64,000 nt of DNA, taken from contig JBFMAL010000009.1 of the NCBI GenBank assembly GCA_040755615.1, positions 3,155-67,154 of the forward strand. Direction: 5' to 3'. The DNA is from Bacillota bacterium (lineage in GTDB: Bacteria > Bacillota > Sulfobacillia > DUSP01 > DYEP01). Positions 7,466 through 62,708 of this stretch are shown here, one piece after another (the first letter of the stretch is position 1; the number at the start of each line of letters is the position of its first letter). The notes beneath the pieces are model-generated. The model saw nothing but the letters and a program-made list of their open reading frames with translations. It was not told where the DNA came from and made no database searches. The translations under genes were made by a program, and so were the position numbers.

Positions 7466-9079
7466 TCACCTCGCAAGTGGCTTCCGCGTGTAATCGGGAA
7501 GGAGCATGGGCGACATCCTGTCAGTAACAATGCCCTCGGCTTCCAGCTCGGCATGGTACTTCTTCACGTGTTCAAGCGTGAGCCTGCCGGGCTTTACCGT
7601 CCGGGCGTGTTCTGCAGCGGCAGATCCCGCCCTCTTTCCGAAGACCAGGATATCAAGAAGGGAGTTACCCATGAGCCTGTTTCTGCCGTGAACTCCGCCA
7701 GAGGTCTCTCCCGCCACAAAAAGGCCCGGGATCCGCGTCTCTCCCCTGTCATTTATGTCCACCCCGCCGTTCTGGTAGTGAAGCGTTGGGTAGACCAGCA
7801 CCGGTTGCGCGCTCATATCTATACCGAACCTCTTAAACTGTCTGAACATGGCGGGGAGCTCGCGCTGCACGGTGCCGCTGCCGTGTATCAGGTCTATCAT
7901 GGGAGAATCAAGCCATACCCCCATCTGGCCCGTTGAGGTGGTCCACCCCTTCTTCCGCTCGGTGCATTCCCGGATGATAGCGGAGGATACGGCATCCCTC
8001 GTCTCAAGCGGATATATAAATTGCTCTCCTTCCATATTCACCAGCTGAGCGCCAAGTCCTCTTACCTTTTCTGTAACAAGCTGTCCCACGATCTGCTCTG
8101 GGAACGCAACGCCGGTGGGGTGGATCTGCGTGGCGTCAAGGTATATGAGGGGTGCTCCCGCGCGGTACGCCATGACGAGCCCGTCCGCAGTGGCGCCATA
8201 ATGGTTTGTGGTGGGAAAGCCCGCTACGTGGAGCCGACCGAACCCGCCAGTAGCCAGGATCACGCACCTGGCCCTCGCCACGTGGTACTCCCCTGTCTCA
8301 AGGTTCATAAGCACCGCGCCAGCGCACTTGCCCTCGTCGTCCAGCACCAGCTCGACGGCGGGCGAAAACTCGATGGTGACAATGCCCAGGTTCCGGGCCT
8401 CGTCCCTCAGTGTGCGCATGATCTCAGCGCCCGTGTAGTCCCGCGCGTAGTGCATCCTCTTTCTGCAGGTGCCGCCGCCGTGGATGGTCATCAGGGTGCC
8501 GTCAGAGTCCTTGCTGAACATACAGCCGAGCTCGCAGAGCCAGTCGATGACCAGCGGCGCGTCGTGTACCAGGGCGCGCACCAGGTCTGGCTTGTTCACA
8601 AAACCGCCCCCGCCCATCACGTCAAGATAATGGAGCATCGGCGAGTCGTTCGACTTGGTCGCAGCTTGGATGCCTCCCTGTGCCATCATGGTATTGGCGT
8701 CACCAAGCCTCAGCTTGGTCACCTGGAGCACCCGTGCTCCTGCTAGGCTCGCCACGATTGCAGCGGACGTGCCCGCGCCGCCTCCGCCCACGACCAGTAC
8801 GTCTACGTCGTAGCTCACCTGGTCAAGCGGCACTGCGTCCGGGTCAAGCCTGCTTCTTGCCTCAAGCAAGTCCGCGAGCTCGTGCGGCACCTTTTCGCCC
8901 TTGCTCGGGCCAATCCGTATCGCCCTCATGGTATCTGGCCGGAAATCCGGGTGAAAGCCTTTGAGGAGGGCGTCTTTTTCCCCGGGAGTAAGCCTCGGGT
9001 ATGTCTCAGTCATCCTTTTCGCCCGGGTCTTCTCTACGAGTTTGATCGATTCGAGCATACCGGCATTGTACATCGTCAT
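7466..9079 (-). CDS. fumarate reductase/succinate dehydrogenase flavoprotein-family subunit (TfrA-like) with ~100-aa N-terminal extension
   Basis: FAD-binding DVLVVGGGGAG, then GGIQAA and HYxMGG-like motifs of the SdhA/FrdA family. Sits between sucC and an SdhB-like Fe-S gene. Confidence 0.75.
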   Translation of the reverse strand: MTMYNAGMLESIKLVEKTRAKRMTETYPRLTPGEKDALLKGFHPDFRPDTMRAIRIGPSKGEKVPHELADLLEARSRLDPDAVPLDQVSYDVDVLVVGGGGAGTSAAIVASLAGARVLQVTKLRLGDANTMMAQGGIQAATKSNDSPMLHYLDVMGGGGFVNKPDLVRALVHDAPLVIDWLCELGCMFSKDSDGTLMTIHGGGTCRKRMHYARDYTGAEIMRTLRDEARNLGIVTIEFSPAVELVLDDEGKCAGAVLMNLETGEYHVARARCVILATGGFGRLHVAGFPTTNHYGATADGLVMAYRAGAPLIYLDATQIHPTGVAFPEQIVGQLVTEKVRGLGAQLVNMEGEQFIYPLETRDAVSSAIIRECTERKKGWTTSTGQMGVWLDSPMIDLIHGSGTVQRELPAMFRQFKRFGIDMSAQPVLVYPTLHYQNGGVDINDRGETRIPGLFVAGETSGGVHGRNRLMGNSLLDILVFGKRAGSAAAEHARTVKPGRLTLEHVKKYHAELEAEGIVTDRMSPMLLPDYTRKPLAR

Positions 9080-9085
9080 CCCTCC

Positions 9086-9766
9086 CTACGGCTCTATGTC
9101 TCGCGCATCGTACATCGCCTTGAGCTCTTCGGTACTGGTATCGCAAAGCGCATCCAGGTCCCGGTCGAACTCGCCCGCCTTGATCCTCGAGACGACGGAG
9201 GCCAGATGCTCCGCGGGAGGAGCGATGTACCTCGCATACAGCCTTCTTGCCAGGATCGCCACGTTGTACTGCACGGTCTCAGCGGGGCAGCGGGACGCGC
9301 ACAGTCCGCACATGATGCAGTCAAACGACAGGTCCGCAACCTTCTCGATATCACCCCGCATGGCGGCTGCCATGTAATCCATTACTTTGAGTTCCTGTGG
9401 GCATACCTTGGTGCAGGTGTTGCACCCCAGGCACCTTGAGAGCTCGGGGTAGCTCTTTAGAAGCTGCGCCAGGGTGGGCGCCGCCTCCCTGATGTCGTAC
9501 CGGGCCCGGTTTGCGGGGAAAAACGGCAGCTGCGCCAGGTACATGTCGTTTTCCACCACCGTCTGGCAGGCCAGACCCACCTTTATCCTGTAATCCCCGG
9601 GGGTGCGGTAGACCGTACCGCACGCGCCGCAAAAGCCTCCCCTGCAGCCACAGCCCCTGATAAACTTGTAGCCCGCATACTCCATGGCCTTCATGATGGT
9701 GAGCCCTGCGGGCACCTCGTAGGCCTTGCCCATCACGTGGATTTTCACCATCTCCGGTTCTGCCAA
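9086..9766 (-). CDS. succinate dehydrogenase/fumarate reductase iron-sulfur subunit-like protein
   Basis: 2Fe-2S motif CGCRGGFCGACG plus two ferredoxin-type motifs, CLGCNTCTKVCP and CIMCGLCASRCP. Confidence 0.7.
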   Translation of the reverse strand: MAEPEMVKIHVMGKAYEVPAGLTIMKAMEYAGYKFIRGCGCRGGFCGACGTVYRTPGDYRIKVGLACQTVVENDMYLAQLPFFPANRARYDIREAAPTLAQLLKSYPELSRCLGCNTCTKVCPQELKVMDYMAAAMRGDIEKVADLSFDCIMCGLCASRCPAETVQYNVAILARRLYARYIAPPAEHLASVVSRIKAGEFDRDLDALCDTSTEELKAMYDARDIEP

Positions 9767-9781
9767 TTCGCTTTCCCCCTT

Positions 9782-10888
9782 TTACCTGGGTTCCAATTCT
9801 TCTTCTCTGAACGTGGACAACGGCAGAGGATCGTCCAGGCTCCGCCCAGGCACATAGTTCCAGATGGCCTGAATCCGCTCGCTTGCAGCCGCAAACAGCG
9901 TGGCCAAAGGCAAGTCCGCCGGGCAGGCGCTCTCGCACATGCCGCAGTTCACGCAGGATGTGCCCATGTGGTTCAGCCTCGTCAGATGAAACAGCAGGGT
10001 ATCTGTGGGCATCTCGATAAGTCCCTTCCGGCTCGCCCACCTGACATAGCTTGAGGACTCGTGGTCGAAGATCCTCCCGTCGAACACGCACTCCTTGCAG
10101 TAGCAGATAGGGCATGCCCTGCGGCAGTTACCGCATTTTAGGCACATGGCCATCTCGGCCATAAGAGCGGGGAGGTCCGGCACCGCCTGCCTCCACTGGG
10201 AGAACCGGGTTTTCCTCGCATCCTCTCTGCGCGTGCGGAGTGCCGCCAGCGCCTTGGCTCTCTCGCCCGCCTCGCCCGCAGAAAGCCCGAGCGCTCCCGC
10301 TATTTCATCTGCCAGCTCGTGCTTTATCTCCACTACCAGCTGGTCGGGCGATGTGCCGACAACACCGATGTTCGCGGCGACGTTGCCTGATACCGCCTCC
10401 ACGCACACCTCGCACGCGGACCGAACGCCAGAAGCGGCGCCGGACCTCATCGAGGCGACCCAGTCCTCCGAAAGGTCTTTCAGCCCGGAGCCGGAAAGCC
10501 TGGCCCTGAAGACCTCGGGGTCCAGCGTGCCGAGGCAGTCCACTCCAATGAGTAAGAGCCTTGAAAGGTCGACCTGCTTCAGCTTGACCAATTCGTAGGC
10601 CGCCCGTACCTCACAAGGCCTGCACACGGCAGCGATCCGCGCTTTTGGGTCCTTGAACGTCAAGTGCCCGAGTACCTTGGCCTGGCTGACGAGCACAAGC
10701 GGTGCGAAGGGGTCTGGCGCGACCAGTTTTTCGGGGTCGCGGACGAGCGTAGAGACCACGCTTCTGCCGGAGGAGGTTTCCTGCGGCACCAGGACCAGGT
10801 CGACCACGCCGGCTGTGAGGAGCCCGCGAAAGAAACCCCTTACGGTCCCCCAAAAGTCCCCCTGAGTGTTCAAAACAAAGCTCTTCAT
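9782..10888 (-). CDS. FrhB/FdhB-family Fe-S flavoprotein (F420-hydrogenase beta-subunit-like)
   Basis: N-terminal FrhB-like domain, C-terminal CLKCGNCRRACPICYCKEC and CVNCGMCESACP motifs. AGCGAGGT RBS before ATG at 10888 (track ORF starts with GTG at 10924). Confidence 0.55.
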   Translation of the reverse strand: MKSFVLNTQGDFWGTVRGFFRGLLTAGVVDLVLVPQETSSGRSVVSTLVRDPEKLVAPDPFAPLVLVSQAKVLGHLTFKDPKARIAAVCRPCEVRAAYELVKLKQVDLSRLLLIGVDCLGTLDPEVFRARLSGSGLKDLSEDWVASMRSGAASGVRSACEVCVEAVSGNVAANIGVVGTSPDQLVVEIKHELADEIAGALGLSAGEAGERAKALAALRTRREDARKTRFSQWRQAVPDLPALMAEMAMCLKCGNCRRACPICYCKECVFDGRIFDHESSSYVRWASRKGLIEMPTDTLLFHLTRLNHMGTSCVNCGMCESACPADLPLATLFAAASERIQAIWNYVPGRSLDDPLPLSTFREEELEPR

Positions 10889-10911
10889 GGTGTCTACCTC
10901 GCTTTGAGCCA

Positions 10912-11358
10912 TCAGATTTCCCACTGTGCCTTCATGGGATTGGGGCCAAGTTGCTTGAGAGTTGCCACCATCTTTGTCACCGTATCCGCGAACAGCTTGC
11001 CTTCGCTGGCCGAGATAAACCGGAACCAGACCCGGTCCCCGGGAATGCCGAACTGCGAAAGCACGTTCTTGGCAATGGCCACACGGCGTCGTGCCTTGTA
11101 GTTACCGTTGACGTAATGGCAGTCTCCCGCGTGGCACCCGCCCACCAGCACCCCGTCGGCGCCTTCCAGTATGGGTTTTATGATGTACAGGGGATCGACC
11201 GACCCGCTGCACATCACCCTGATCACCCTGATGTTGGGCGGGTACTGGATCCGGGAGGTACCCGCAAGGTCCGCGCCTGTGTAGGTACACCAGTTGCACA
11301 GAAGGGCGATAATCTTCGGCTCAAAATCTGAAGCTGTCTTTTGTGCCGGAACGCTCAT
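10912..11358 (-). CDS. mvhD: MvhD-type hydrogenase iron-sulfur subunit (methyl-viologen-reducing hydrogenase delta-subunit family)
   Basis: KIIALLCNWCTYTGADLAG ... CSGSVDP ... GCHAGDCHY signature of MvhD/FlpD. 4-nt overlap with the downstream hdrL. Confidence 0.75.
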   Translation of the reverse strand: MSVPAQKTASDFEPKIIALLCNWCTYTGADLAGTSRIQYPPNIRVIRVMCSGSVDPLYIIKPILEGADGVLVGGCHAGDCHYVNGNYKARRRVAIAKNVLSQFGIPGDRVWFRFISASEGKLFADTVTKMVATLKQLGPNPMKAQWEI

Positions 11359-14300
11359 TCCCGAATCACCTCCGTTATCCCGTCTGAAAGCGCTTCGTCC
11401 AGCATGGCCATGATCTGCGACTTGTCAAACCCCCGCTGGACCGACGCGCCATTTGGACAGGCGGCCACGCACGCGCCGCAGCCCTGGCACAGCACTTCTC
11501 TCACCGCCGCCACGTTTCTTTCCTCGTCGATGCACCTCGCCTCGTACGGACAGGCGGAGACACACACGCCGCACGCGGAGCAGATGCGCTCCCTGACCGC
11601 GGCGATGGTCGCTTCCGATTCGATCCTATCCTTGGACAGCAGCGTCACCGCCCTGATGGCTGCGGCCTTGGCCTGCGCTACCGACTCGGGGGCGAGCTTC
11701 GGCGAGTGGGCGAGCCCGGCCAAGTAGATGCCGTCTGCCGCGAAGTCCACAGGACGCAGCTTCATGTGGGCCTCCGAAAAGAAACCGTCCTGGTTCAGGG
11801 GCAGCTTAAACACCCGGGCCAGGTGCTCGTTGGCCCCGGCAGCTACGCCCGTAGACAGCACCAGGTATTCCACCGAAAGCCTGACCTCCCGCCCGATGGC
11901 CGGGTCCTGAGCGGTCAGGACCACCCCGTCATCGCGCGGTGACACTCGCGGTTTTTCGTCCGGGTCATACCTTATAAACAGCACCCCCGCCTCTCTTGCC
12001 TGCCTGTAGTACTTCTCCCTGAAGCCGTAGGTGCGCATGTCCCTATAGAACACGTACACCTTAGCATCAGGCCTCTTTGACTTTATATAAAGTGCGTTCT
12101 TCACCGCGTTGGTGCAGCAGATCCTGCTGCAGTACGGGTGGTCGTCATCGCGCGAGCCCACGCACTGGATCATGGCGACGGACTGTGGCACAAATCCTTT
12201 CGCCAGCATCTCCTCCAGCTCGCGTTGGGTAATCACGCGGTCGCTTTCGCCATAGCCGTACTCTTTGGGCGTCATCTCCGTCGCCCCGGTGGCGATAACC
12301 ACCGCTCCGTGCCTCACCTCGAGCGTTTCGTGCACCGAGCGCAGAGTGGTCTTGTAGTTGCCCTTGTAGCCCACGGAGTCTGCCACCTCGGTGCTGGTAT
12401 ATACCCGGATGTCTGGGCACGACATCACCGCACCGATCAGCTCCTCAAGGTACGCCCCGGGATTCTCGCCCGACAGGGCGATCTTCACGTGCCTGTAGTT
12501 GCCGCCGAGCTCGGCCTCCTTCTCCACCAGATGTACCGAAAAGCCCTGCCTGGCGAGGGAGAGCGCGGCCGTCATGCCTGTTATCCCTCCTCCCACCACA
12601 AGCGCCGTATGCTCGATCTCGGAGAACACGGTGTAAAGGGGTTCAAGCAACCTGGCCTTCGCCACAGCCATGGACACGAGCGTCTTTGCCTTGGCCGTCG
12701 CTTCGACCGGGTAATCCCTGTGTACCCAAGAGGAATGCTCTCTGATGCTGGCGAGCTCAAAGAGGAACATATTGAGTCCCGCCTCGCGCAGTGTATCCCG
12801 GAACAGCGCTTCATGGGTCCGCGGCGTGCAGGATGCAACCACTACGCGGTTTAAGCCGTACTCTTTGATGCGCTCTTTGATCTTCTCGATGCTGTCCTGA
12901 GCGCACGCGTACAAAAACTCGTCTGCGTGTACCACGCCAGGTATGGCGCAGGCGTGCGCCACCACCTCGGGTACGTTCACCACCGAACCGATGTTGCGCC
13001 CGCAGTGGCACACGAATACGCCCACCCGCGGTTCCTGGCCACGGACCTCGCGCTCCGACGGATAGCGTTTCACCCGGGTCAGCGTGTGCCTCACCCCGCT
13101 CAAAAGTTCGGATGCGCACGCCGCCGCTGCGGAGGCCTCGGTCACCGTCTCGGGTATGTCCTTCGGACCGGAGAACGCCCCGGATACGAACACGCCGGGC
13201 CGGCTTGACGCGACAGGCAGCAGCGGATCGGTCACGGGGAAGCCGTGCTCGTCCAGCAGTATCCCCGCGCTGGATGCTACCTGCTGGGCATCCGCGGCCG
13301 GCAAAAAGCCCACAGACAGCACCACCAGGTCGAACTCCTCCGTGCGGAACCCGCTTTCAGTGTGGTACCTGAGCCTCAGGTTGCCGCTTGGGTTCACTTC
13401 CTTCACCGAACTCACCATGGCACGCACGTAGCGCACCCCGTACTCCTCTTTCGCTCGCTCGTAGTACCGCTCGAAGTCCTTGCCGAAGGCGCGTACGTCC
13501 ATGTAAAAGATGGTGGTCTCGACCCCGGGCAGGTGTTCCTTGGCGATGACAGCTTCTTTCGTGGCGTGCATGCAGCATACCGCCGAGCAGTAATCGCTGG
13601 CGTGCGCACAATCGCGCGAACCCACGCACTGGATAAACGCGATCCGCTTCGGTTCTTTGTGATCGGACGGCCTCACCACGTGGCCCTGGTACGGACCCGA
13701 GGCGGACAGCATCCTCTCAAACTGGATGCTCGAGATCACGTTGGGAACCTGCCCAAACCCGTACTCGCCCTTCTTCGCCGCATCAAACAACGAAAACCCC
13801 GGCGAGAGGATCACTGACCCGACTGTGAGTTCGACTACCTCGTCGGTCATCCGGTGGTCGATGGCACCAGGACCGCACACTTTTTCGCACTCCAGGCATT
13901 CGCAGCACGCGCCGCAGGCAAGGCACCTTGACGCCTCCTCCCTGGCCGTCGCATCATCCAGCGCGAATTCCACTTCTTTGAAATCCTGCCGCCTGTCCCC
14001 AGCCGGCCGGCACATGACTTTCGCTCTCTTTTTCTTTGTGGCAGACAGCGCTTCATACGGGGCGATTTCTTCCTCCGGCACGCGCAGCGTCCTTCCCTCG
14101 CGCAGGTCCTCGCCATCCAAAAAACGCACGATGGACTCGGCGGCCCTCTTTCCCGCAGCCACCGCTTGGATCAGAAGGCCCGGCCCCGACACCGCGTCGC
14201 CCCCCGCGAATACGCCGGGAATGGACGTCTCGAGTGTCAACGGATCCGCAGCGATGGTGCCGCCTGAGAGCCTCAGCTCGTCGAGCCCTTTCGTGTCTGT

Positions 14301-15797
14301 AGCCTGCCCCACCGCCAGTATGACGGTATCCACATCCAGGTAGAACTCGGAGCCCTTCACCGGCACCGGACGCCTGCGGCCGGATGCATCCGGCTCGCCC
14401 AGTTCGTTTCTGAGGCATTCCATCCGGGCAAGCCTGCCGGATGCCCCGAGCTTCCCCGTGCCCAGAAACGCCTGTGGCGAAGTAAGCATCAAGAACCGCA
14501 CGCCCTCCTCCTTCGCCTGCTCGATCTCTTCCGGGAGCGCGGTGATCTCCTGCTCGGTGCGCCTGTAAACCACGGTCACCTCGGAGGCGCCAAGCCGCAC
14601 CGCTGTCCGGGCGGCATCCATTGCAGTGTTGCCGCCACCCACCACCGCCACCCGGGCACCGAGGGTCACCGTCTGCCCCAGTGAGACCTTTCTCAAAAAC
14701 TCCACACCGTCGATAACCCCGGGCAGATCCTCGCCCGGCACGCCCAGCCGCCGGCCGCGGTGGGCACCCACAGCCACATATACCGCCGAGAAGCCCTTTT
14801 CAAATAGGGATTTTATACTGAAGTCCTTCCCGAGCGCCTGACCCGTGCGTATATCCACCCCCAGGGAGCGGATCACGTCGATCTCTTTTTGCACAACATC
14901 CCGGGGCAGGCGGTAGGACGGGATGCCCACCACCATCATGCCGCCGGGCACGGGGAGTTTTTCAAACACCGTCACCGATATCCCTTTTCTTGCCAGGTGG
15001 TACGCGCACGACAGCCCGGCCGGTCCCGCGCCCACCACCGCCACTTTCTCGGGCCTGGGCGTTGGGGCAACAAGCTGTGGGCCGCCCTCCAACCACACCG
15101 TGTCTGCTATGGTACGCTTTAGCGCCATAATGGAAACGGGCGCATCCAAGCGGCCTCTGTGACACGCGGCCTCGCACGGGTGCTGGCACACCCGACCGCA
15201 TACCGATGGGAAGGGTAGGTCGCGGTAGATCACGTCCAGCGCCTCGCGGTACTTGCCCTGTGCCAGCAGCGCCACGTATGCCTGTGCATTGACTCCCGCC
15301 GGGCATGCCGCCCTGCACGGAGGTATGCCGCGTTTTTCCACCGCGTACGCGTTGGGAGTTGCCTGCGGGTACATCTTGTATATGGCTTTCCTCGTGCCGA
15401 GTGCGCCGTCAAACTCGCTCGACCTGTCTATGGGGCAGGCCCTGGCGCAGTCACCGCACGAGGTACACTTCTTCAAATCCACATACCGGGCTTTCTTGGA
15501 AAGCCGCACGCTGAACGCCCCGGGCTCGCCTTCTACAGAGAGCAGCGTGGCGCCGGGGATGATCTCAACATTCAAGTGCCTTCCAGTATCCACCAGCTTG
15601 GGCGACATGATGCACATGGCGCAATCGTTGGTGGGGAACGTCTTATCCAGGCGGGCCATGGTGCCGCCGATGGCGGGCGCGCTGTCGGCCAGGTACACCC
15701 TGAGCCCCGCCTCAGCCAAGTCCAGCGCCGATTGCATGCCGCTGATCCCGCCGCCCAGCACGAGCACGGCCCCGCTCTTCCGCGCGCTGTCCATCAT
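11355..15797 (-). CDS. hdrL: giant HdrA-like multi-domain flavoprotein (HdrL-type). Domain order: HdrA FAD domain + ferredoxin, NfnB/GltD-like NAD(P)H domain, then a complete HdrA
   Basis: Three Rossmann GxGxxG sites (VLGGGISGMQSA, VAVVGAGPAGLSCA, VVGGGITGMTAA). GltD/NfnB N-terminal Fe-S region (CRAACPAGV...CGRVCQHPCEAAC). HdrA N-terminal Cys motif (VFVCHCGRNIG) in the middle. Multiple CxxCxxCxxxCP ferredoxin motifs. 1480 aa. Confidence 0.8.
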   Translation of the reverse strand: MMDSARKSGAVLVLGGGISGMQSALDLAEAGLRVYLADSAPAIGGTMARLDKTFPTNDCAMCIMSPKLVDTGRHLNVEIIPGATLLSVEGEPGAFSVRLSKKARYVDLKKCTSCGDCARACPIDRSSEFDGALGTRKAIYKMYPQATPNAYAVEKRGIPPCRAACPAGVNAQAYVALLAQGKYREALDVIYRDLPFPSVCGRVCQHPCEAACHRGRLDAPVSIMALKRTIADTVWLEGGPQLVAPTPRPEKVAVVGAGPAGLSCAYHLARKGISVTVFEKLPVPGGMMVVGIPSYRLPRDVVQKEIDVIRSLGVDIRTGQALGKDFSIKSLFEKGFSAVYVAVGAHRGRRLGVPGEDLPGVIDGVEFLRKVSLGQTVTLGARVAVVGGGNTAMDAARTAVRLGASEVTVVYRRTEQEITALPEEIEQAKEEGVRFLMLTSPQAFLGTGKLGASGRLARMECLRNELGEPDASGRRRPVPVKGSEFYLDVDTVILAVGQATDTKGLDELRLSGGTIAADPLTLETSIPGVFAGGDAVSGPGLLIQAVAAGKRAAESIVRFLDGEDLREGRTLRVPEEEIAPYEALSATKKKRAKVMCRPAGDRRQDFKEVEFALDDATAREEASRCLACGACCECLECEKVCGPGAIDHRMTDEVVELTVGSVILSPGFSLFDAAKKGEYGFGQVPNVISSIQFERMLSASGPYQGHVVRPSDHKEPKRIAFIQCVGSRDCAHASDYCSAVCCMHATKEAVIAKEHLPGVETTIFYMDVRAFGKDFERYYERAKEEYGVRYVRAMVSSVKEVNPSGNLRLRYHTESGFRTEEFDLVVLSVGFLPAADAQQVASSAGILLDEHGFPVTDPLLPVASSRPGVFVSGAFSGPKDIPETVTEASAAAACASELLSGVRHTLTRVKRYPSEREVRGQEPRVGVFVCHCGRNIGSVVNVPEVVAHACAIPGVVHADEFLYACAQDSIEKIKERIKEYGLNRVVVASCTPRTHEALFRDTLREAGLNMFLFELASIREHSSWVHRDYPVEATAKAKTLVSMAVAKARLLEPLYTVFSEIEHTALVVGGGITGMTAALSLARQGFSVHLVEKEAELGGNYRHVKIALSGENPGAYLEELIGAVMSCPDIRVYTSTEVADSVGYKGNYKTTLRSVHETLEVRHGAVVIATGATEMTPKEYGYGESDRVITQRELEEMLAKGFVPQSVAMIQCVGSRDDDHPYCSRICCTNAVKNALYIKSKRPDAKVYVFYRDMRTYGFREKYYRQAREAGVLFIRYDPDEKPRVSPRDDGVVLTAQDPAIGREVRLSVEYLVLSTGVAAGANEHLARVFKLPLNQDGFFSEAHMKLRPVDFAADGIYLAGLAHSPKLAPESVAQAKAAAIRAVTLLSKDRIESEATIAAVRERICSACGVCVSACPYEARCIDEERNVAAVREVLCQGCGACVAACPNGASVQRGFDKSQIMAMLDEALSDGITEVIRE

Positions 15798-16651
15798 GCT
15801 TCCACCCCCGCCTTCAGCTTCTCAAATACCATCTTCGTGGAGACCAAATGGCGGGCGAGCCACCGCCGAGTCCCATGAAGACCCAGCGCCACTCCCATGA
15901 GTTCGGTGAAATAGAACACGGGAATCCGCTGGCTGGACGACCGCCTCATCTCCAGATTCGCCTGGCAGAGGGGGCATGCTGTGACGATAGCGTCCGCACC
16001 GGCGTCGATGGCGGCCGCTACAATTGGCTTCACCATGGCCACCACCAGCCGGCTGCTGGTCAGCGAGAGGTTGGCCCCGCAGCACTCCGTCCTGTAGGAC
16101 CACCTGACGCACGATGCGCCGAGCGCCTCCATAATGTCTTCCATCATCCGCGGGTTTTCCGGATCGGCGACCCCAGTCACCTCGGCAGGCCGCAGCAGCA
16201 GGCACCCGTAATAGCAGGCGAGCTTCAGCTTGAGCGGTTGCTTCACCTTCCGCTCGATGGCGGCTGCCGTGATGCGCCTGTGCATGAACTCAAGCAAGTT
16301 TTCCACTTCCGGTACGCGCGAAAAGCGATAATCCAAGGCATGTTCACTCATCTGCCTTATGCTGTCTCGGCGCCTGATGTGGTGCGCAGCCTTCTTCAGT
16401 CTACTGTAGCACGCCGCGCAGGGCGCCACCACCAGGTCCGCCCCTTCAGCGTCCGCCTGCGCCAGGTTCCTCGCGGCCAGCGCGATCCCCAGCTGGCCGT
16501 TGGTGCTGTGCGCTGATGTGGCGCCGCAGCAGTTCCAGTCTGACACCTCGGGTATATCCAGTTCAAACGCGGAAAACACCGCCTTTGTACTTTCATCATA
16601 TTCCTTCGCCGTGGAATGCAGCGAGCAGCCGGGATAATACTTGACGTTCAA
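15794..16651 (-). CDS. hdrB: heterodisulfide reductase subunit B-like (two CCG domains)
   Basis: CCG domain motifs (YYPGC...WNCCGA, CYYGC...ECCGA, ACPLCQANL). Confidence 0.85.
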   Translation of the reverse strand: MNVKYYPGCSLHSTAKEYDESTKAVFSAFELDIPEVSDWNCCGATSAHSTNGQLGIALAARNLAQADAEGADLVVAPCAACYSRLKKAAHHIRRRDSIRQMSEHALDYRFSRVPEVENLLEFMHRRITAAAIERKVKQPLKLKLACYYGCLLLRPAEVTGVADPENPRMMEDIMEALGASCVRWSYRTECCGANLSLTSSRLVVAMVKPIVAAAIDAGADAIVTACPLCQANLEMRRSSSQRIPVFYFTELMGVALGLHGTRRWLARHLVSTKMVFEKLKAGVEA

Positions 16652-17220
16652 CTTGTGCCCCCCCTCCTTCTGCTGGTACGCGAAAAGATCTGCCTCACCT
16701 GTTCTCTGCCCCGGAGCCGCGGGGGTAAGATGGCGAGTTTGCCCTTTAGAAACATCTTTGCGCCCACCAGGAGATCGTTTAGAAGCTGCCCCGACATCAG
16801 CTTGTACTTCCCGAGCAGGAGTACCTCATGCATACGGCCCTGGCTTTTAACGGTATCAAGGAAGATCCTGTGGAACAGCACGATCCGCTTGCCGCGCGCG
16901 ATGCCCCTCGACAGCGCCATCTCGCGGCACACGTCCATAACTTCCGCCATGTTGATACCGTTCGGACACCTTGCGCCACAGGTCTCGCAGCTCGAACACA
17001 GCCAGATGCTCTCTGAGCGGAGCACCAAGTCGCTTGCGCCGTACTGGATGTACCTCACGATCTGGTTGGGGTGAAGGTCCATGAACTCAGCCGCGGGGCA
17101 CCCCGAACTGCACTTTTCGCATTGGTAACACAGATCGAGGGGCTGACCGGACGCCTGTTTCACTCGCTCAAGAAAGTCTGCATCGAGCGTCAGCGTCCCT
17201 GACTTGTCCAACAGCTGCAC
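16648..17220 (-). CDS. hdrC: heterodisulfide reductase subunit C-like (2x[4Fe-4S])
   Basis: CYQCEKCSSGCP and CSSCETCGARCP motifs. 4-nt overlap with hdrB. Confidence 0.8.
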   Translation of the reverse strand: MQLLDKSGTLTLDADFLERVKQASGQPLDLCYQCEKCSSGCPAAEFMDLHPNQIVRYIQYGASDLVLRSESIWLCSSCETCGARCPNGINMAEVMDVCREMALSRGIARGKRIVLFHRIFLDTVKSQGRMHEVLLLGKYKLMSGQLLNDLLVGAKMFLKGKLAILPPRLRGREQVRQIFSRTSRRRGGTS

Positions 17221-17235
17221 TGGGATCCCCCCTTT

Positions 17236-19185
17236 CTAGAGCATGGCATCGATCATAGACAGGAGTTGCGGCTTGGTGAGATTCCTGTGTTTTGTCGCCC
17301 CGCTCGGGCACGCAGCTGCACAGCCGCCGCAGCCCTGGCAGAGCACCTCGAATACCGTTGCGACGCGCGTGTGTTCATCTACTGCCCTTGCGCCGTATGG
17401 GCACGCCTCCACACATATCCCACACCCCACGCAGATGTCCGGGTCCACCTCTACTACTGTGGGCGGATGCTGCAGTTCTTCGCCTGAAAACAGCGTGAGC
17501 ACCTTTGAGGCCGCGGAGCCTGCCTGCGCTACGCTATCGGGTATGTCCTTGGGCGCCTGGGCGCACCCTGTGAGGTAGATGCCTCGCGTCAGGCTCTCCA
17601 CAGGCCGGAGCTTGGGGTGCGCCTCCTGGAAGAACCCGTAGGCGTCCGTACCCAGACGCAGCACCTGCGCCAGTTCCCTGGCATCATGGCGCGGAACGAT
17701 GGCAGTAGCCAACACCACCAAGTCCGCGGCGATGCGCACGTTCTCGCAAGAGAGCGTGTCTGTACCCCACACCATGACCTTGTCCCCTTCCTGGAACACG
17801 CGGGATACGCGGCCGCGGAGGTAGAGCAGGCCGTCTTGCTCCACGCCCCTCTGGATGAACTCCTCGTAGCCCTTGCCGGCGGCGCGGATGTCCATGTAAA
17901 AAAGGTAGGCCTGCCCGTCGTGCACTTTGTGCTTGTACAGCATGGCGTGCTTTGCCGAGTACATGCAGCAGATCTTGGAGCAATATGGCATACCTTTCTC
18001 CTGGTCTCTCGACCCCACGCACTGTATGAACACAACCTCCTTCGGGACACGGCCGTCTGACGGACGCCGGATCTCGCCCTGCGTGGGACCTGAAGAGGAG
18101 TTCAGGCGCTCGAATTGAAGCCCATCTATCACATCGGGAATACGGCCGTAGCCATACTCTCCAAAATGCTCCTTCGGCAAAAGGTCGTAGCCCGTGGCCA
18201 CCACGATGGCCCCGACCTGTTCCTCGATGACCCGTTCTTCGTCTTCAAAGTTGATGGCATCCACGGGGCAGACCTTCTTGCACACCCCGCACTTGCCCGA
18301 ATTGAGGTAGATGCAGTGTTCCCTGCTTATGGCGGGTCGATAAGGCACCGCCTGGGGGAACGCCACCCCGATGGCCTTGGTCTTTCCCATGCCCCTGTCA
18401 AACTCGGAGTCCACCTTTTTCGGGCACTTGTTCATGCACTCCATGCAGCCCGTGCACCTGTCCCAGTGCACGTAGGTGGGGTGCACCTTGATCTTCACAT
18501 TGAAATTGCCTACGTAGCCCGACACTTTCACGACCTCGGAATGGGTCATAAGCTGTATGCGCTCGTGCCGCCCTACCTCAGCTGTTTTCGGAGTGAGGAT
18601 GCAGCTGGCGCAATCCAGCGTAGGGAAGGTCTCCGAAAGCTGCGCCATGCGGCCGCCGATGTGGGGCAGCCTTTCGACCAAAACCACCTGGTAGCCCGCG
18701 TCGGCGACCTCCAGCGCCGTCTGCATCCCGCTGATGCCTGCTCCTATCACCAGCGCCTTCTTGGTTACGGACACCGCTATCGGCTTCAGCGATTCATCCC
18801 TCCTGGTCTTCTCTACCACCGACCTCACCAATTCAATCGCCTTTTCGGTGGCTTCCTGCTTATACTGGGAATGGACCCAGCTGTCCTGTTCACGGATATT
18901 GCATATCTCAAGTCTGTACGGGTTGAGCCCCGCCGCCTGTGCCGCCAGCCTGAACGTGGTCTCGTGCATGTTAGGCGAACACGCCGCTACAACCACCCCG
19001 TCAAGCTGCTTTTCGGCTATGGCTTGTTTGATGAGCGCCTGGCCCGGGTCTGAACACATATATTTATAGTCTTCAGCGTGGACGACTCCTGGGTATTGCG
19101 AGATCTCCTCTACCACGGCTTTCACATCCACCGTGCCCGCGATGTTGTACCCGCACCAGCAGACAAAGACTCCGATCCTTCGCAT
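17236..19185 (-). CDS. hdrA: heterodisulfide reductase subunit A (canonical ~650-aa HdrA)
   Basis: N-terminal Cys domain (VFVCWCGYNIAG), FAD site VIGAGISGMQTA, inserted and C-terminal ferredoxin motifs (CTGCMECMNKCP, CGVCKKVCP, CVGCGICVEACP, CQGCGGCAAACP). Confidence 0.85.
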   Translation of the reverse strand: MRRIGVFVCWCGYNIAGTVDVKAVVEEISQYPGVVHAEDYKYMCSDPGQALIKQAIAEKQLDGVVVAACSPNMHETTFRLAAQAAGLNPYRLEICNIREQDSWVHSQYKQEATEKAIELVRSVVEKTRRDESLKPIAVSVTKKALVIGAGISGMQTALEVADAGYQVVLVERLPHIGGRMAQLSETFPTLDCASCILTPKTAEVGRHERIQLMTHSEVVKVSGYVGNFNVKIKVHPTYVHWDRCTGCMECMNKCPKKVDSEFDRGMGKTKAIGVAFPQAVPYRPAISREHCIYLNSGKCGVCKKVCPVDAINFEDEERVIEEQVGAIVVATGYDLLPKEHFGEYGYGRIPDVIDGLQFERLNSSSGPTQGEIRRPSDGRVPKEVVFIQCVGSRDQEKGMPYCSKICCMYSAKHAMLYKHKVHDGQAYLFYMDIRAAGKGYEEFIQRGVEQDGLLYLRGRVSRVFQEGDKVMVWGTDTLSCENVRIAADLVVLATAIVPRHDARELAQVLRLGTDAYGFFQEAHPKLRPVESLTRGIYLTGCAQAPKDIPDSVAQAGSAASKVLTLFSGEELQHPPTVVEVDPDICVGCGICVEACPYGARAVDEHTRVATVFEVLCQGCGGCAAACPSGATKHRNLTKPQLLSMIDAML

Positions 19186-19188
19186 GAG

Positions 19189-20067
19189 CTACACCCCGTT
19201 TGCGAACCCGGCCAGCACAGGCCGGGGATCTACATGATGAAGCGAAAAGTCCTGCAGCACCTCAGTACATCCCAGCGCCAGCGCCAAAAGTTGGGTGAAA
19301 TAAAGGACTGGCATCTGCCCTTTCACGTCGAGGTTGTACTGGCACAACGGACATGACGTCACTATGCAGTGAGCCCCATACCTGCCCGCGGAGCGAAGGA
19401 TGGCGCGCGCAGGCTCGCCTGACCTTTCATCTTCCGAGATGGACACGTACGCGCCGCAGCACTCAGTGCGGTACGGGTAATCCACCGGGGTAGCTCCCAG
19501 CGCTCTTATGAAGTCCTCGAAAATGGAGGGAGACTCTGCGTCGTCAAACTGCATATCCTCCGGCGGTCGAAGCAGAAGGCAGCCGTAGTACGGGGCTACG
19601 GAAAGCCCCGTGAGGGGCCGGGTGACCCTTTCTTTCAGCGCCTCGAACCCGAGGTCTGTTTTGAGCACCTCGAGCAGGTGCAGCACGCGGGCGTCCCCCC
19701 TGTAATCTGTCTCCACAAACGCAGATAATTTCCCCTGCACATCAGGGTCTTTCGCAACGCGCACGTTTGTCCTCTTCAGCACGTTGTAACAGCCGGAACA
19801 CATGGTCACAAGGTCCTCTCCCCTTGAGTGGGCGGAAGACAGCGTCCTGTACGGGGATACCAGCGCCATGTGGTTGTCGGAAGCCAGCGGGTACACAGCC
19901 CCGCAACACTGCCAATCCGGCAGTTCAACCAGCTCGATACCGAGTTCCCGGGCAGACGCAAGTGCTGAGGCCCCAAAGTTCTTCGCCTGCGTGTGCAGGG
20001 TACATCCAGGAAAGTAACTGTACCTCATTTGTCTTCCCGTGCCTTTCTTTAGCCGGGTGCCGGGCAC
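19189..20067 (-). CDS. hdrB: heterodisulfide reductase subunit B-like, second copy
   Basis: YFPGC...WQCCGA and YYGC...ECCGA CCG motifs. Confidence 0.85.
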   Translation of the reverse strand: MPGTRLKKGTGRQMRYSYFPGCTLHTQAKNFGASALASARELGIELVELPDWQCCGAVYPLASDNHMALVSPYRTLSSAHSRGEDLVTMCSGCYNVLKRTNVRVAKDPDVQGKLSAFVETDYRGDARVLHLLEVLKTDLGFEALKERVTRPLTGLSVAPYYGCLLLRPPEDMQFDDAESPSIFEDFIRALGATPVDYPYRTECCGAYVSISEDERSGEPARAILRSAGRYGAHCIVTSCPLCQYNLDVKGQMPVLYFTQLLALALGCTEVLQDFSLHHVDPRPVLAGFANGV

Positions 20068-20466
20068 CTAGCTGTATTTGCGAAGACCTCCGACCAGCGC
20101 TTGCTGTGGCATCGCCTCCAGCAGCTCGGGTGGCAGCCGGGTCGGATTCACGAAGTCCTTTCCTTCCCTTAAAAGCACCGTCCGGAGTGCCTCCATGATC
20201 CTGGAGAGGTCAACGGACCTCGGGCATCGCGACGCGCACGTATGGCAGGCCGCGCAGAGCCAGATGGTCCTTGAGGATAGCGCCACGGACTCCTGACCCA
20301 GCTGCAAGAGCCTCAGCACCCTGTGCGGCAGGTACTCCATCACTTCAGCCATGGGGCAGCCCGCAGAACACTTCCCGCACTGGTAACAGCCATGTATCTT
20401 TTCGCCGCTTATTTCCTCTACCCTGAAGACAAACTCGCTCCTTACCTTGTCAGCCGTCAGCTGCAA
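20068..20466 (-). CDS. hdrC: heterodisulfide reductase subunit C-like, second copy (TTG start)
   Basis: CYQCGKCSAGCP and CAACHTCASRCP motifs. Starts with TTG after GGGGGAG. Confidence 0.7.
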   Translation of the reverse strand: MQLTADKVRSEFVFRVEEISGEKIHGCYQCGKCSAGCPMAEVMEYLPHRVLRLLQLGQESVALSSRTIWLCAACHTCASRCPRSVDLSRIMEALRTVLLREGKDFVNPTRLPPELLEAMPQQALVGGLRKYS

Positions 20467-36760: not shown

Positions 36761-37567
<807 letters not shown>

Positions 37568-38587
37568 TTAAAAGTGGTTCGGAACCATCATCTGGTCGAT
37601 ATGCTTCTTAACTAGCTGGACAGCCTTTGGGTGCCTTAAGACCAGCACGTGAGCACCGGCCTGGAGCAGCGCGCCCGCGGTGACCGCTTCCCAGAGCACG
37701 GATCTGGTATCCACCTCGCCCCACGTGGGGAATTCTGATGCGGGTGCGTTGGCCTCTTTGGACCTCCATGATTCATAACCGACATTGCATATAACGGGCA
37801 TGGACAGCATCTTATCCCCACCTAGCGCGCCCAGGCGTATCCGTTCCATGATGGAGTACACGTACTCGATGCCGTAGCCGAGCCCCGCCACCGTCGGGTC
37901 GATGAGCACGCGCTCAAAGGGCAGGTTCATCTCGGTGATCAGGATGTTCAGCTGCTTGCATATATTGATGTCGATCGGCGATTGGGCGATGATCGTGTGC
38001 TTGTGCACCATGCAGGCGGCGGTAAGCGTCTTGTAGTTCTCCTGGGTAGCCGTGCCGAGCACCAGGTTTTCGCCTGCAGCGGCCTCCGCCACCACTGGAA
38101 GCACCTCGTTGTCCTTTTCGTCGTCACCGCATCCGATAACGATCAGCGGGACTGATACGGCGGAAAGCACGCTCTTCACTGTGCTCGCGCATGCTTCGGG
38201 CGATCTGTTCTCCCCTTCGGGGTCCGCCCCGTTGAGCCGGAGGCAGATGAGGTCCGCCCCGTAATCCTCAACACACTTTTTGGCCCAGGCCGCGGGATCA
38301 TCAAGTACGCCGGCGAAGGGCTCCGTAAGGTGCGCTGCCCAGCCTTCTGGCTGGACGTCCAGGACCTCCATGGCGACTACCGGCCTGTTTGCCACCTCTC
38401 CCTCAAAATGGAGGAAAGGTAGTGTGCTGTCTCCGCCGACCTTTATTACGTGAGACCTGGTCCCGCCCATCTCCTTGGTAGCCCCGAGCACGACCTCACC
38501 GACCCTGCTCGTGTACCGTTCCTTGAGCTTTTCAACAGCCATGGCTACTCCCCTTTCTTTAAGACAAGCCTTATGATCAAATGCCAC
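37568..38587 (-). CDS. acsD: corrinoid iron-sulfur protein small (delta) subunit
   Basis: TIM-barrel CFeSP small-subunit-like sequence in the canonical position between cooC and acsE. Confidence 0.8.
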
Positions 38588-39329
38588 GCGCCTCGAGGAT
38601 GGCGCCGACCGCTACTACTGACGGGGCGTCATCCGGCAGTTCGAGCAGGGCGCGGCCCTTCAAATCATATTCAGATACCAGCGGATCAAAGGGCACGGTG
38701 CCGGCGAGCGTAAGGCCCTGCGCCTCTATCTCAGGCATTAGCGCGACGAGATCGCCCTCGCGCGCCCGCGTGACCACCAGGTACATCTCTCTTACATCAA
38801 GTCGCAGCGCACCGACAAGCGCCCTCACCCTGCCTGCGGAGCGAATGCCCCTCACCGTCGGGTCCGAAGTAACAAAGAGCACGTCCACATCCCTGGCCAC
38901 GCGACGTGACAAGTGCTCAAGCCCTGCCTCATTGTCCATAACGAGGTAGGGGTAGTTCCGCGACAGGATTTCCATGTGCCTTCGAAGCAAATCATTAGGA
39001 AAACAGTAGCAGCCCGGTCCCTCGGGCCCTCCCATAACCAGAAGGTCTACGTCCTTGCCTTCCGACAGCGCCGCGTTCAGCCTGTACTCTATGAACTGGT
39101 CTTTGCTCATGCCCGCGGGCAGCGCCTTACTCTCCTTTGTCTCCGAAATAATTTCTGAGATGGTATGGGAAACCGGAAGCCCCAGGGCCTCGTTCAGGTT
39201 GGCATTGGCATCGGCGTCCACTGCCAAGACCGGCTTCTTCCCGTTTTTCACAAGCCAGCCTACAGTCAGTGCGGCGAACGTCGTTTTGCCCGTGCCCCCT
39301 TTGCCCGCGAGAGCGATATGCTTCTTCAC
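38577..39329 (-). CDS. cooC: CODH/ACS nickel-insertion ATPase (CooC/AcsF)
   Basis: Walker A ([12 protein letters not shown]) and MinD/ParA-type deviant ATPase with a CxC motif (GCYC). Confidence 0.85.
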
Positions 39330-41239: not shown

Positions 41240-41255
41240 CTGGATCCTCCTCGCT

Positions 41256-42590: not shown

Positions 42591-42607
42591 CCCCCTTTAC
42601 CTTGAAG

Positions 42608-44812: not shown

Positions 44813-44841
44813 CCTCGTTTTCTCCTCCCTTCTCCCGTGGC

Positions 44842-46851: not shown

Positions 46852-47011
46852 TTAGGTTTACCCCCTTTGCAATAAATAAATGATACAACAAAGCCAGGTC
46901 CTCTGGCATTGACATACATAGAACAGGCCGTGTATGCTTTCGACAATTGTTACACAAATCCTCTTACAGAACCTACTCCCCGCCCTGCCATATAACGTAC
47001 ATGCTGGTGAT

Positions 47012-62673: not shown

Positions 62674-62708
62674 TTGCAGGACCTCCTCTTGTATACAATT
62701 ATTGTATT

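Follow-up and report, generated by a model that had tools for sequence, protein, structure and literature searches.

Introduction

The thiol:fumarate reductase TfrAB of Methanothermobacter is, as later papers relate, a soluble enzyme without a membrane anchor (Heim et al. 1998, via PMC6315080 and PMC8542988). The "succinate operon" of P. thermosuccinogenes combines a fumarase, a seven-gene Flx-Hdr set (FlxABCD-HdrABC) and a two-gene fumarate reductase, co-regulated about 4-fold (PMC7282089), and the coupling of Flx-Hdr-linked NADH:fumarate reduction to ferredoxin reduction was proposed in the 2019 preprint of Koendjbiharie and van Kranenburg, as cited in PMC7282089. Here we describe a further arrangement of this kind in a 64,000-nucleotide stretch of a Bacillota bacterium (contig JBFMAL010000009.1, positions 3,155 to 67,154; hereinafter the window), where a fumarate reductase-like pair, FrdB' and FrdA', closes a block of heterodisulfide reductase (Hdr)-type genes at window positions 7466-20466 on the minus strand.

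Tubeworm symbionts and Thioflavicoccus mobilis carry tfrAB interspersed with flxABCD-hdrABC and korABCD in clusters of the reductive tricarboxylic acid (rTCA) cycle (Rubin-Blum et al. 2019, PMC6315080), and co-expression of rTCA tfrAB-flx-hdr genes is attributed to PMC11636981 in the summary given by PMC13147460. An HdrABC/HdrL module, represented by HdrL of D. autotrophicum and by Sfum_0819-0824 of S. fumaroxidans, has no fumarate reductase attached, and DsrC was suggested as its acceptor (PMC5947623). The MetVF-HdrABC-MvhD methylene-tetrahydrofolate (methylene-THF) reductase of Moorella thermoacetica is cited as a case in which bifurcation is unproven (Mock et al. 2014, via PMC7325909), and the soluble five-subunit FrdABCDE of Hydrogenobacter thermophilus as an NADH-dependent fumarate reductase demonstrated biochemically (Miura et al. 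2008, via PMC13147460). Cloacimonadota have clusters with thiol:fumarate reductase, 2-oxoglutarate:ferredoxin oxidoreductase (OGOR), fumarase, SucCD, Mvh and Hdr genes (Williams et al. 2021), and papers on the Culexarchaeia describe SdhA beside HdrBC and hydrogenase genes.

The transfer of electrons from NADH to fumarate wastes about 350 mV unless it is coupled, and classical organisms couple it via membrane quinones. We consider that the block described here probably encodes a fumarate reductase (FrdA'B') that works in the cytoplasm without quinones and is wired electrically to Hdr-type modules, and that its most likely function is NAD(P)H-dependent fumarate reduction with flavin-based bifurcation to ferredoxin, feeding succinyl-CoA. 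Four observations carry this reading: the gene content, the catalytic residues, the lack of an anchor gene nearby and a conserved synteny.

Gene content of the locus

In the order of transcription the block reads HdrC1-HdrB1-HdrA-HdrC2-HdrB2-HdrL-MvhD-FdhB/FrhB-like-FrdB'-FrdA' (Table 1), with a fumarase and a malic enzyme on its 5' side and sucCD on its 3' side, frdB'A' standing last, behind the hdr genes and directly before sucCD. Domain assignments by Pfam and NCBIfam are strong across the block and its flanking genes, and the long open reading frames (ORFs) of the region of 4.9-23.4 kb are all minus-strand. Junctions within the block range from -13 to +15 bp, sucC starts 6 bp past the end of frdA', and the sole larger gap, of 57 bp, separates the malic enzyme gene from hdrC1. 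This tight one-strand packing from fumA to sucD counts in favor of a functional unit. The ATG at 10912 is likely the true start of the fdhB-like gene, giving a 1-nt overlap with the mvhD stop. The first-pass annotation of this DNA, made from the letters alone, had reported a gene content and coordinates that ORF calls, Pfam and NCBIfam bear out; its list of genes was right but ran in reverse of transcription, as the genes lie on the minus strand, and the 4-nt overlaps that it gave for all of them are found at three junctions inside the block (and at sucC/sucD as a fourth), while the remaining junctions are mostly gaps of 0-15 bp.

A scan for transmembrane (TM) helices over window positions 1-44000 returned no ORF with two or more predicted helices except one antisense ORF inside hdrL, and for the window the earlier statement that no membrane anchor gene lies nearby therefore holds. 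A tRNA scan of the window found none.

A GC-rich terminator-like hairpin at 5457-5441 (minus strand) directly follows sucD, and at 23467-23438 (minus strand), about 60 bp 5' of the fumA ORF start in the 405-bp gap that follows metF, lies a pair of sigma-70-like hexamers. Both are consensus matches of a kind not enriched over shuffled sequence; together they would delimit an 18-kb transcription unit running from fumA to sucD.

The flavoprotein FrdA' and its iron-sulfur partner FrdB'

An AlphaFold2 model of FrdA' (mean predicted local distance difference test, pLDDT, 87.5; predicted TM-score, pTM, 0.89) finds E. coli FrdA as its best Foldseek match (TM-score 0.70), and its top 50 PDB matches are all fumarate reductase/succinate dehydrogenase flavoproteins or flavocytochrome c3. 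Aligned to E. coli FrdA, it retains the residues of the fumarate site: H232/T234 correspond to H320/T322 in a HPTG motif, E245/R248 to E337/R340, the proton donor R287 to R361, H355 to H434 and R390 to R468. The position of the covalent-FAD histidine, His44, is occupied by Asn129, so that the FAD is predicted to be bound non-covalently. These catalytic residues and Asn129 are invariant across 62 homologues. Since the catalytic residues are kept and invariant and the model matches Frd/Sdh flavoproteins, we take FrdA' to be a fumarate reductase-type flavoprotein.

In scoring against NCBIfam, the best family is the archaeal TfrA (NF004900; 341 bits against a cutoff of 718, model positions 6-426 of 546), after which come the models for SdhA and FrdA (144-285 bits, cutoffs 541 or higher) and for NadB (283 bits, cutoff 452.75). 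The SdhA C-terminal domain PF02910 (Succ_DH_flav_C) has no Pfam match in FrdA', an absence that the first-pass annotation missed. The N-terminal extension that it did report is present and measures about 90 rather than about 100 residues; it is conserved family-wide (e.g., a FHPD motif at 42-45) and is confidently modeled as helices and short strands (residues 1-90, block-mean pLDDT 82-97). Neither the extension nor the C-terminal tail has a match among Pfam and PDB sequences. The extension (residues 1-92) coincides with the loss of the SdhA C-terminal domain (the tail being 475-537), and it may serve as a substitute for that domain or as a docking surface for a Hdr partner.

FrdB' has a [2Fe-2S] motif (C41-x4-C46-x2-C49...C67) and two CxxCxxCxxxCP motifs, and hence two [4Fe-4S] and no [3Fe-4S] sites; a looser Cx5Cx3CP pattern matches only within the two [4Fe-4S] motifs, and there is no dedicated [3Fe-4S]-type motif. 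This set of clusters resembles the N-terminal half of TfrB. Chains A/B of the recent PDB entry 9lay, labeled a "succinate dehydrogenase or fumarate reductase flavoprotein" of 657 aa and, as its partner, a "4Fe-4S ferredoxin" of 260 aa, give a weaker match (E 9e-34) than E. coli FrdA.

The Hdr-type modules

HdrA is the type of subunit that bears the bifurcating flavin in HdrABC. HdrL consists of two fused HdrA-like units with an NfnB/GltD-like NAD(P)H-FAD-2x[4Fe-4S] insert at about residues 158-640, the second unit ending in a C-terminal ferredoxin domain. The PRK12771 model passes its cutoff of 516 on residues 150-657, PDB HdrA chains match HdrL with E 1e-188 (7bkb_A with E 1e-150), and residues 158-640 are covered by NfnB (4ylf_B), NfnI (5jca_L) and StnC (8oh5_C).

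The two HdrB paralogues each keep both CCG motifs and the two HdrC paralogues each keep two [4Fe-4S] motifs. On HdrB1 the NCBIfam models for HdrB (155 bits) and SdhE (158 bits) both stay below their cutoffs. HdrC1 is the commoner paralogue beside FrdB'A' in other genomes, being the best-match label in most related loci. The protein first called FrhB-like is best described as FdhB-like, as 7bkb_E aligns with it in two stretches that span most of the chain (E 4e-32). In the 7bkb complex, FdhB connects the catalytic dehydrogenase module to MvhD and hence to HdrA. Together, HdrABC, the FdhB-like protein, MvhD and HdrL constitute the "HdrABC/HdrL" module known from sulfate reducers.

Conserved synteny across phyla

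Relatives of FrdA' are encoded by at least 596 genomes when each GTDB species is represented by one genome, the carriers including human-gut Lachnospiraceae, Christensenella, Sporomusa and Thermoplasmata. With 57-83% identity across phyla, this large clade is strongly conserved; its members usually carry no annotation more specific than "FAD-binding protein" or "succinate dehydrogenase flavoprotein". Its closest members are a Joint Genome Institute (JGI) metagenome protein (97%) and that of Ca. Hakubella thermalkaliphila (83%), a serpentinite-spring actinobacterium with the Wood-Ljungdahl pathway and an incomplete TCA cycle, which is the closest named relative (PMC7325909). The latter has the identical order HdrA-HdrC-HdrB-HdrL-MvhD-FdhB-like-FrdB-FrdA with no sucCD, and no multi-TM genes beside these loci; hence, it is the Hdr-Frd linkage that represents the conserved part.

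For the comparison of gene order, six-frame ORFs of the 80 best loci (57-73% identity, i.e., the most similar ones and not a random sample) were searched with the window proteins and sorted by layout. They span Bacillota, Chloroflexota, WOR-3, Cloacimonadota, Planctomycetota and Fibrobacterota and, among archaea, Thermoplasmata, Theionarchaea, Thermococci and Culexarchaeia. FrdB' lies directly 5' of FrdA' in all 80, and a fumarase adjoins the pair in 27. For 68 loci at least 3 kb of sequence 5' of the pair was available, and in 63 of these, Hdr genes on the same strand directly precede it. As Hdr genes hold this position across bacterial and archaeal phyla, the coupling is not one of chance. 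The earlier suggestion that a fumarate/succinate flavoenzyme is functionally tied to Hdr modules thus gains from the operon packing, the Ca. Hakubella gene order and these counts alike.

Four layouts recur. Layout I, HdrB-C-A-FlxD-C-B-A-FrdB'A'(-FumAB), is the commonest (35 of the 80; Lachnospiraceae, Sporomusa, Christensenella, Ruminococcus and others), its homologues being 57-63% identical to the window's FrdA'. Layout II is a minimal HdrC-HdrB-FrdB'A' (6 of the 80, e.g., L001, L002, L028 and L039), layout III is HdrC-B-A(-MvhD)-FrdB'A' (13 loci), and layout IV is (HdrCB-)HdrL-MvhD-FdhB-like-FrdB'A' (nine loci in Chloroflexota, one Bacillota and one Thermoplasmata among them). The window is a case of layout IV and resembles layout II with HdrA-HdrC2B2-HdrL-MvhD-FdhB-like inserted between hdrB1 and frdB', as seen by comparison with a layout II locus that reads FumAB-HdrC1B1-FrdB'A'-SucCD (L002, 72% identity). 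The FrdA'B' clade is therefore modular over four Hdr front ends, which widens a question already posed rather than opening it.

Two further features of these loci are recorded here. Some Anaerolineae and Thermoflexales have a second, divergent FdhB-like gene between frdB' and frdA' (L014, 3174-4208; L026, 4347-5429; L057, 8118-9191). Layout I clusters typical of Clostridia occur on contigs of unrelated gut taxa, one labeled Bacteroides uniformis (L063) and one Treponema sp. (L059), which could reflect mis-binning or horizontal transfer.

Proposed function and alternatives

The conserved core HdrC1B1 plus FrdB'A' amounts to a thiol:fumarate reductase (TfrAB) whose parts are encoded separately, and between its two halves stands the HdrA-HdrC2B2-HdrL-MvhD-FdhB-like unit. 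The donor, the bifurcation, the exact wiring and the direction that we infer are as follows. NAD(P)H would be oxidized at the NfnB/GltD-like insert of HdrL, the presence of which supports NAD(P)H as the donor, and the electron pair would be split by an HdrA-type flavin. On its way to fumarate the high-potential electron would most likely pass MvhD, the FdhB-like protein, the clusters of FrdB' and the FAD of FrdA', in this order, and the low-potential one would leave via the C-terminal ferredoxin domain to ferredoxin. The net reaction would be 2 NAD(P)H + fumarate + 2 Fd(ox) -> 2 NAD(P)+ + succinate + 2 Fd(red). Ferredoxin (Fd) has an E0' of -420 to -500 mV. Taken with +33 mV for fumarate and -320 mV for NADH (PMC5861303), this gives a calculated -33 to -49 kJ/mol. 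The fumarase and malic enzyme would supply the presumed substrate and SucCD would consume the presumed product, making up a reductive branch from pyruvate/malate over fumarate and succinate to succinyl-CoA in a Wood-Ljungdahl organism, with low-potential reductant being recovered where the potential drop from NADH to fumarate would otherwise be wasted.

A more specific form of this proposal has the HdrABC/HdrL unit hard-wired through MvhD and the FdhB-type adaptor to the fumarate reductase in a supercomplex of at least 10 subunits, in which a C4-dicarboxylate would replace the heterodisulfide as the high-potential acceptor, the HdrBC pairs could offer a second, thiol/disulfide outlet and the whole might be reversible; this we put forward tentatively, as possible though somewhat short of probable.

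Several points weigh against coupled fumarate reduction as we propose it. No NCBIfam equivalog cutoff (TfrA, TfrB, SdhA, FrdA, NadB) is reached, and the substrate is therefore read from residues and synteny. Consensus scans for promoters and terminators gave no more matches than shuffled sequence, so that co-transcription is judged from spacing. In the solved Hdr complexes MvhD is on the input path of electrons, and its use as an output toward fumarate is an assumption on our part. If the coupling were by hard wiring alone, two intact HdrBC pairs would be superfluous, and their presence hints at a thiol/disulfide reaction. The absence of an anchor pertains to the window, and anchor or quinone genes could lie elsewhere in the source genome. 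Five of the related loci have no Hdr genes in the upstream sequence examined (some 3.5 kb for L022 and some 10 kb for each of the others): in L017 and L018 (Dehalococcoidia), L022 and L060 (WOR-3) and L025 (Syntrophomonadaceae), FrdB'A' is found with fumarase and sometimes with malic enzyme or sucCD. Finally, no enzyme of this kind that has been characterized biochemically was found in the literature searched, most papers in subscription journals lying outside it.

The role of the HdrBC pairs is the main uncertainty: they may be wires, or they may form a thiol:fumarate reductase whose disulfide is separately re-reduced. Of the alternatives, the one built on the latter option survives best, though we judge it unlikely. 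Here HdrC1B1-FrdB'A' would be a true thiol:fumarate reductase oxidizing a thiol pair or protein dithiol, and HdrA/HdrL-HdrC2B2-MvhD an NAD(P)H-dependent bifurcating disulfide reductase regenerating the thiols; the net chemistry would be the same, with coupling by a diffusible disulfide and not by Fe-S wires. Two HdrBC pairs would give one for each role, with both CCG motifs present in both HdrB paralogues, and the minimal HdrC-HdrB-FrdB'-FrdA' unit that stands alone in the six layout II loci amounts to a split TfrAB; moreover, Flx-Hdr electrons have been assigned to "ferredoxin (and thiols)" (PMC7282089). Yet Pfam annotation of the block revealed no gene for a thiol carrier (DsrC, lipoate-binding or GcvH-like protein), the commonest layout, of 35 loci, has a single HdrBC pair, and the position of mvhD and the fdhB-like gene immediately before frdB' argues for direct docking.

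The first-pass annotation suggested that in a propionate-oxidizing syntroph the enzyme could run in reverse, as a confurcating succinate dehydrogenase that would oxidize succinate together with reduced ferredoxin to make NAD(P)H, in place of membrane reverse electron transport. Flavin-based bifurcating enzymes are reversible in principle, the flanking sucCD and fumarase would serve an oxidative route too, and confurcation has been proposed for HdrABC/HdrL of S. fumaroxidans (PMC5947623). By the same potentials, however, succinate oxidation would cost about 33-49 kJ/mol under standard conditions and require a mass-action ratio near 1e-7. The syntroph premise is likewise unsupported because of the gene content of the window and the described relative: the locus belongs to a CODH/ACS-MetVF-fumarase-malic enzyme supercluster, no methylmalonyl-CoA pathway gene is among the Pfam-annotated ORFs of the window (several smaller ORFs being left unannotated), and Ca. 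Hakubella, the nearest relative with a name, is described as having the Wood-Ljungdahl pathway alongside an incomplete TCA cycle (PMC7325909). The only physiological data are from a succinate producer (PMC7282089). We consider the reverse direction improbable.

L-aspartate oxidase (NadB), a type E succinate:quinone reductase and chance adjacency were rejected as primary explanations on the grounds of sub-cutoff scores, the Fe-S partner in 80 of 80 loci and Hdr synteny in 63 of 68. That FrdA' might be NadB-like, some other enoate or amino-acid oxidoreductase, or a fortuitous neighbor of the hdr genes is very improbable: the NadB models do score near those of Sdh/Frd with no equivalog cutoff met by either, and FrdA' has His200 where E. 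coli FrdA has Phe and where NadB has Glu121, but there is no L-aspartate oxidase in the first 50 Foldseek matches, a fumarase adjoins 27 of the 80 loci with the Fe-S partner always adjacent, and a synteny that extends over bacterial and archaeal phyla excludes chance. Least probable of all is a type E-like quinol:fumarate reductase with menaquinone as partner, an HdrB-like protein as amphipathic "anchor" (SdhE) and HdrA/HdrL as a separate system, for although the top NCBIfam match of HdrB1 is the SdhE anchor model of methylmenaquinol:fumarate reductase (MFR), marginally over HdrB, and FrdB' has a second [4Fe-4S] motif in place of [3Fe-4S] just as type E SdhB does, all MFR/type E models fall far under their cutoffs (SdhE 158 of 500 bits, SdhA 223 of 1100), the MFR SdhB model picks up only HdrC1 and HdrC2 (42 and 23 bits; cutoff 600) and is not among the best 25 matches of FrdB', FrdA' has neither the His for covalent FAD nor the C-terminal domain, no SdhF-like or TM protein is nearby, and most loci also contain HdrA, MvhD, Flx or HdrL.

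Bifurcating fumarate reduction, if true, would provide a cytoplasmic, quinone-free route that banks the energy of fumarate reduction as reduced ferredoxin. This is of relevance to energy-limited Wood-Ljungdahl organisms, reductive or incomplete TCA branches, the succinate of gut Clostridia and engineered succinate producers; what is still missing is biochemical proof rather than hypothesis. With respect to the first-pass annotation, its observation is confirmed and its interpretation partly supported.

Wider genomic context

The window has a GC content of about 60%. An origin in Syntrophobacter, which this value and the syntroph framing of the first-pass annotation had suggested, was rejected, the closest proteins being those of the JGI metagenome (97%) and Ca. 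Hakubella (83%). The block forms part of a co-oriented minus-strand region of about 42 kb that brings together an acs cluster, two Hdr clusters and TCA genes (Table 1). A paralogous HdrL2-MvhD-Flx-like-MetVF set lies 3 kb upstream of the block; this second Hdr cluster looks like an HdrL- and Flx-linked methylene-THF reductase that would bind NAD(P)H in two distinct modules, and the placing of HdrL2-MvhD-Flx-like genes by MetVF suggests that one design serves two exergonic reductions. Annotation of the window showed no genes of methanogenesis and neither kor nor acl genes. Farther off, and unrelated to frd-hdr, the window encodes a MttB-family methyltransferase homologue (61243-62772, minus strand) beside a saccharopine-dehydrogenase-like gene (60092-61264, minus strand), and a PKD-domain protein (56318-58699).

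Table 1. Genes of the frd-hdr block and of the co-oriented region upstream, in the order of transcription (window coordinates)
Feature	Position	Strand	Evidence and remarks
Complete acs cluster: carbon monoxide dehydrogenase (CODH), acetyl-CoA synthase (ACS), both corrinoid iron-sulfur protein (CFeSP) subunits, RACo, CooC-like ATPase, methyltransferase, DUF3786	36761-47620	-	
CODH, ACS, CFeSP, RACo, methyltransferase	46851-36761	-	
Split HdrA-like genes	36733-33969	-	
MvhD (second Hdr cluster)	34086-33556	-	
HdrC-like (second Hdr cluster)	33537-33055	-	
HdrL2	33051-28627	-	53% identical paralogue of HdrL
MvhD/FlxD-like, two Fe-S proteins (FlxC/B-like), PyrK/FlxA-like NAD-binding, MetV, MetF	after HdrL2, to 23786	-	
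FumA (class I fumarase)	23380-22337	-	PF05681 E 2.5e-116
FumB (class I fumarase)	22324-21776	-	PF05683 E 1e-61
Malic enzyme	21765-20524	-	Pfam malic/Malic_M
HdrC1, small HdrC-like, 132 aa, 2x[4Fe-4S]	20466-20068	-	Pfam Fer4_8/17 (Fer4 dicluster); NCBIfam HdrC 73 bits; two CxxCxxCxxxC
HdrB1, two complete CCG motifs (non-cubane [4Fe-4S] sites)	20067-19189	-	PF02754 twice, E 4e-20
HdrA, FAD/Fe-S subunit	19185-17236	-	NCBIfam HdrA2 792 bits, residues 3-648; Pfam Fer4, Pyr_redox_2, FAD domains
HdrC2, second HdrC-like	17220-16648	-	Pfam, NCBIfam, motifs; 4-nt overlap with hdrB2
HdrB2, second HdrB-like, both CCG motifs intact	16651-15794	-	PF02754 E 1.5e-26; 4-nt overlap with hdrL
HdrL, 1480 aa	15797-11355	-	NCBIfam HdrA2 945 bits in 4 stretches; PRK12771 558 bits
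MvhD, [2Fe-2S] adaptor docking partner modules onto HdrA	11358-10912	-	PF02662 E 3e-51; VhuD 144 bits
FdhB/FrhB-like Fe-S (possibly flavin) adaptor	10924-9782	-	PDB 7bkb_E E 4e-32; two CxxCxxCxxxC; weak PF04432
FrdB' (SdhB-like), 226 aa	9766-9086	-	Pfam Fer2_4, Fer4 dicluster; TfrB N-terminal half 34 bits
FrdA' (SdhA/FrdA-like), 537 aa	9079-7466	-	PF00890 residues 93-474, E 2e-72; TfrA model 341 bits
SucC (succinyl-CoA synthetase)	7459-6344	-	Pfam ATP-grasp_2, Ligase_CoA, CoA_binding (SucC + SucD)
SucD (succinyl-CoA synthetase)	6347-5472	-	Pfam set given jointly with SucC

Comparison with known systems

The likeness to archaeal thiol:fumarate reductase that the first-pass annotation drew stands. 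TfrA is the best NCBIfam match of FrdA', which keeps the fumarate-site residues and has a predicted non-covalent FAD; the N-terminal [2Fe-2S] and 2x[4Fe-4S] part of TfrB corresponds to FrdB' and its C-terminal CCG part to HdrB, such that HdrC1B1 plus FrdB' equal a split TfrB. The differences are that TfrB is one polypeptide with two CCG domains whereas here these functions are divided among FrdB', HdrC and HdrB, that FrdA' has the N-terminal extension and lacks the C-terminal approximately 120 residues of the TfrA model, that its score stays below the equivalog cutoff (341 of 718 bits), and that the window adds HdrA, HdrL and MvhD. CoM-SH and CoB-SH are unlikely donors here because the host is not a methanogen. 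Compared to classical complex II, there is no SdhC/D or FrdC/D anchor in window positions 1-44000 or beside the Hakubella genes, an Asn takes the place of the covalent-FAD His, and PF02910 and a [3Fe-4S] motif are wanting.

The principle of coupling fumarate reduction to ferredoxin has already been published, in 2019-2020, as a genomic hypothesis for the Flx-Hdr layout. The "succinate operon" of P. thermosuccinogenes, whose layout is our layout I, shares with the window an anchor-less two-gene fumarate reductase beside hdrABC and fumarase. As compared by layout, not by sequence, the window differs in having HdrL (with its NfnB-like insert) and the FdhB-like protein for flxABC, and a second HdrBC pair: flxABC is absent between hdr and frd at 7466-20466, where MvhD is the one MvhD/FlxD-like gene, and Flx-like genes are found upstream beside metVF. 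The rTCA clusters similarly mix putative Tfr-type genes with those of a bifurcating NADH dehydrogenase/Hdr complex and have TCA genes close by, but those are of the Flx type and go with ATP-citrate lyase and OGOR, whereas the window is of the HdrL type in a Wood-Ljungdahl context.

The Fdh-MvhD-HdrABC(-Fmd) supercomplex of Methanospirillum hungatei (7bkb) contains HdrA, HdrB, HdrC, MvhD and an FdhB-type adaptor, as does the window. There, formate dehydrogenase is the donor and CoM-S-S-CoB the acceptor; in the window, the partner is the fumarate reductase, presumably as the acceptor, and the donor module would be the NfnB-like insert. The Moorella MetVF enzyme offers the parallel of an exergonic cytoplasmic reductase attached through MvhD to HdrA-type proteins, its substrate module being MetVF in place of FrdB'A'. 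Set beside the window by its description as cited, FrdABCDE of H. thermophilus has an A subunit homologous to the SdhA of complex II and differs in being plainly NADH-dependent, with no ferredoxin coupling shown in that account.

As for the HdrABC/HdrL module, the window conforms to the description of Sfum_0819-0824 in having hdrABC, an Fdh/hydrogenase-beta-like Fe-S protein, MvhD and HdrL with NAD(P)H domains. No description of this HdrL-MvhD-FdhB-like layout joined to a fumarate reductase was found in the literature searched, within the limits given above. The difference is that frdB'A' follows directly in the window, as it does in Ca. Hakubella and in several metagenome-assembled genomes of Chloroflexota, Bacillota and Thermoplasmata. 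What is new here is thus the joining of an HdrL front end and two HdrBC pairs to FrdB'A', which offers a candidate acceptor for the acceptor-less HdrABC/HdrL module that abounds in sulfate reducers and syntrophs.

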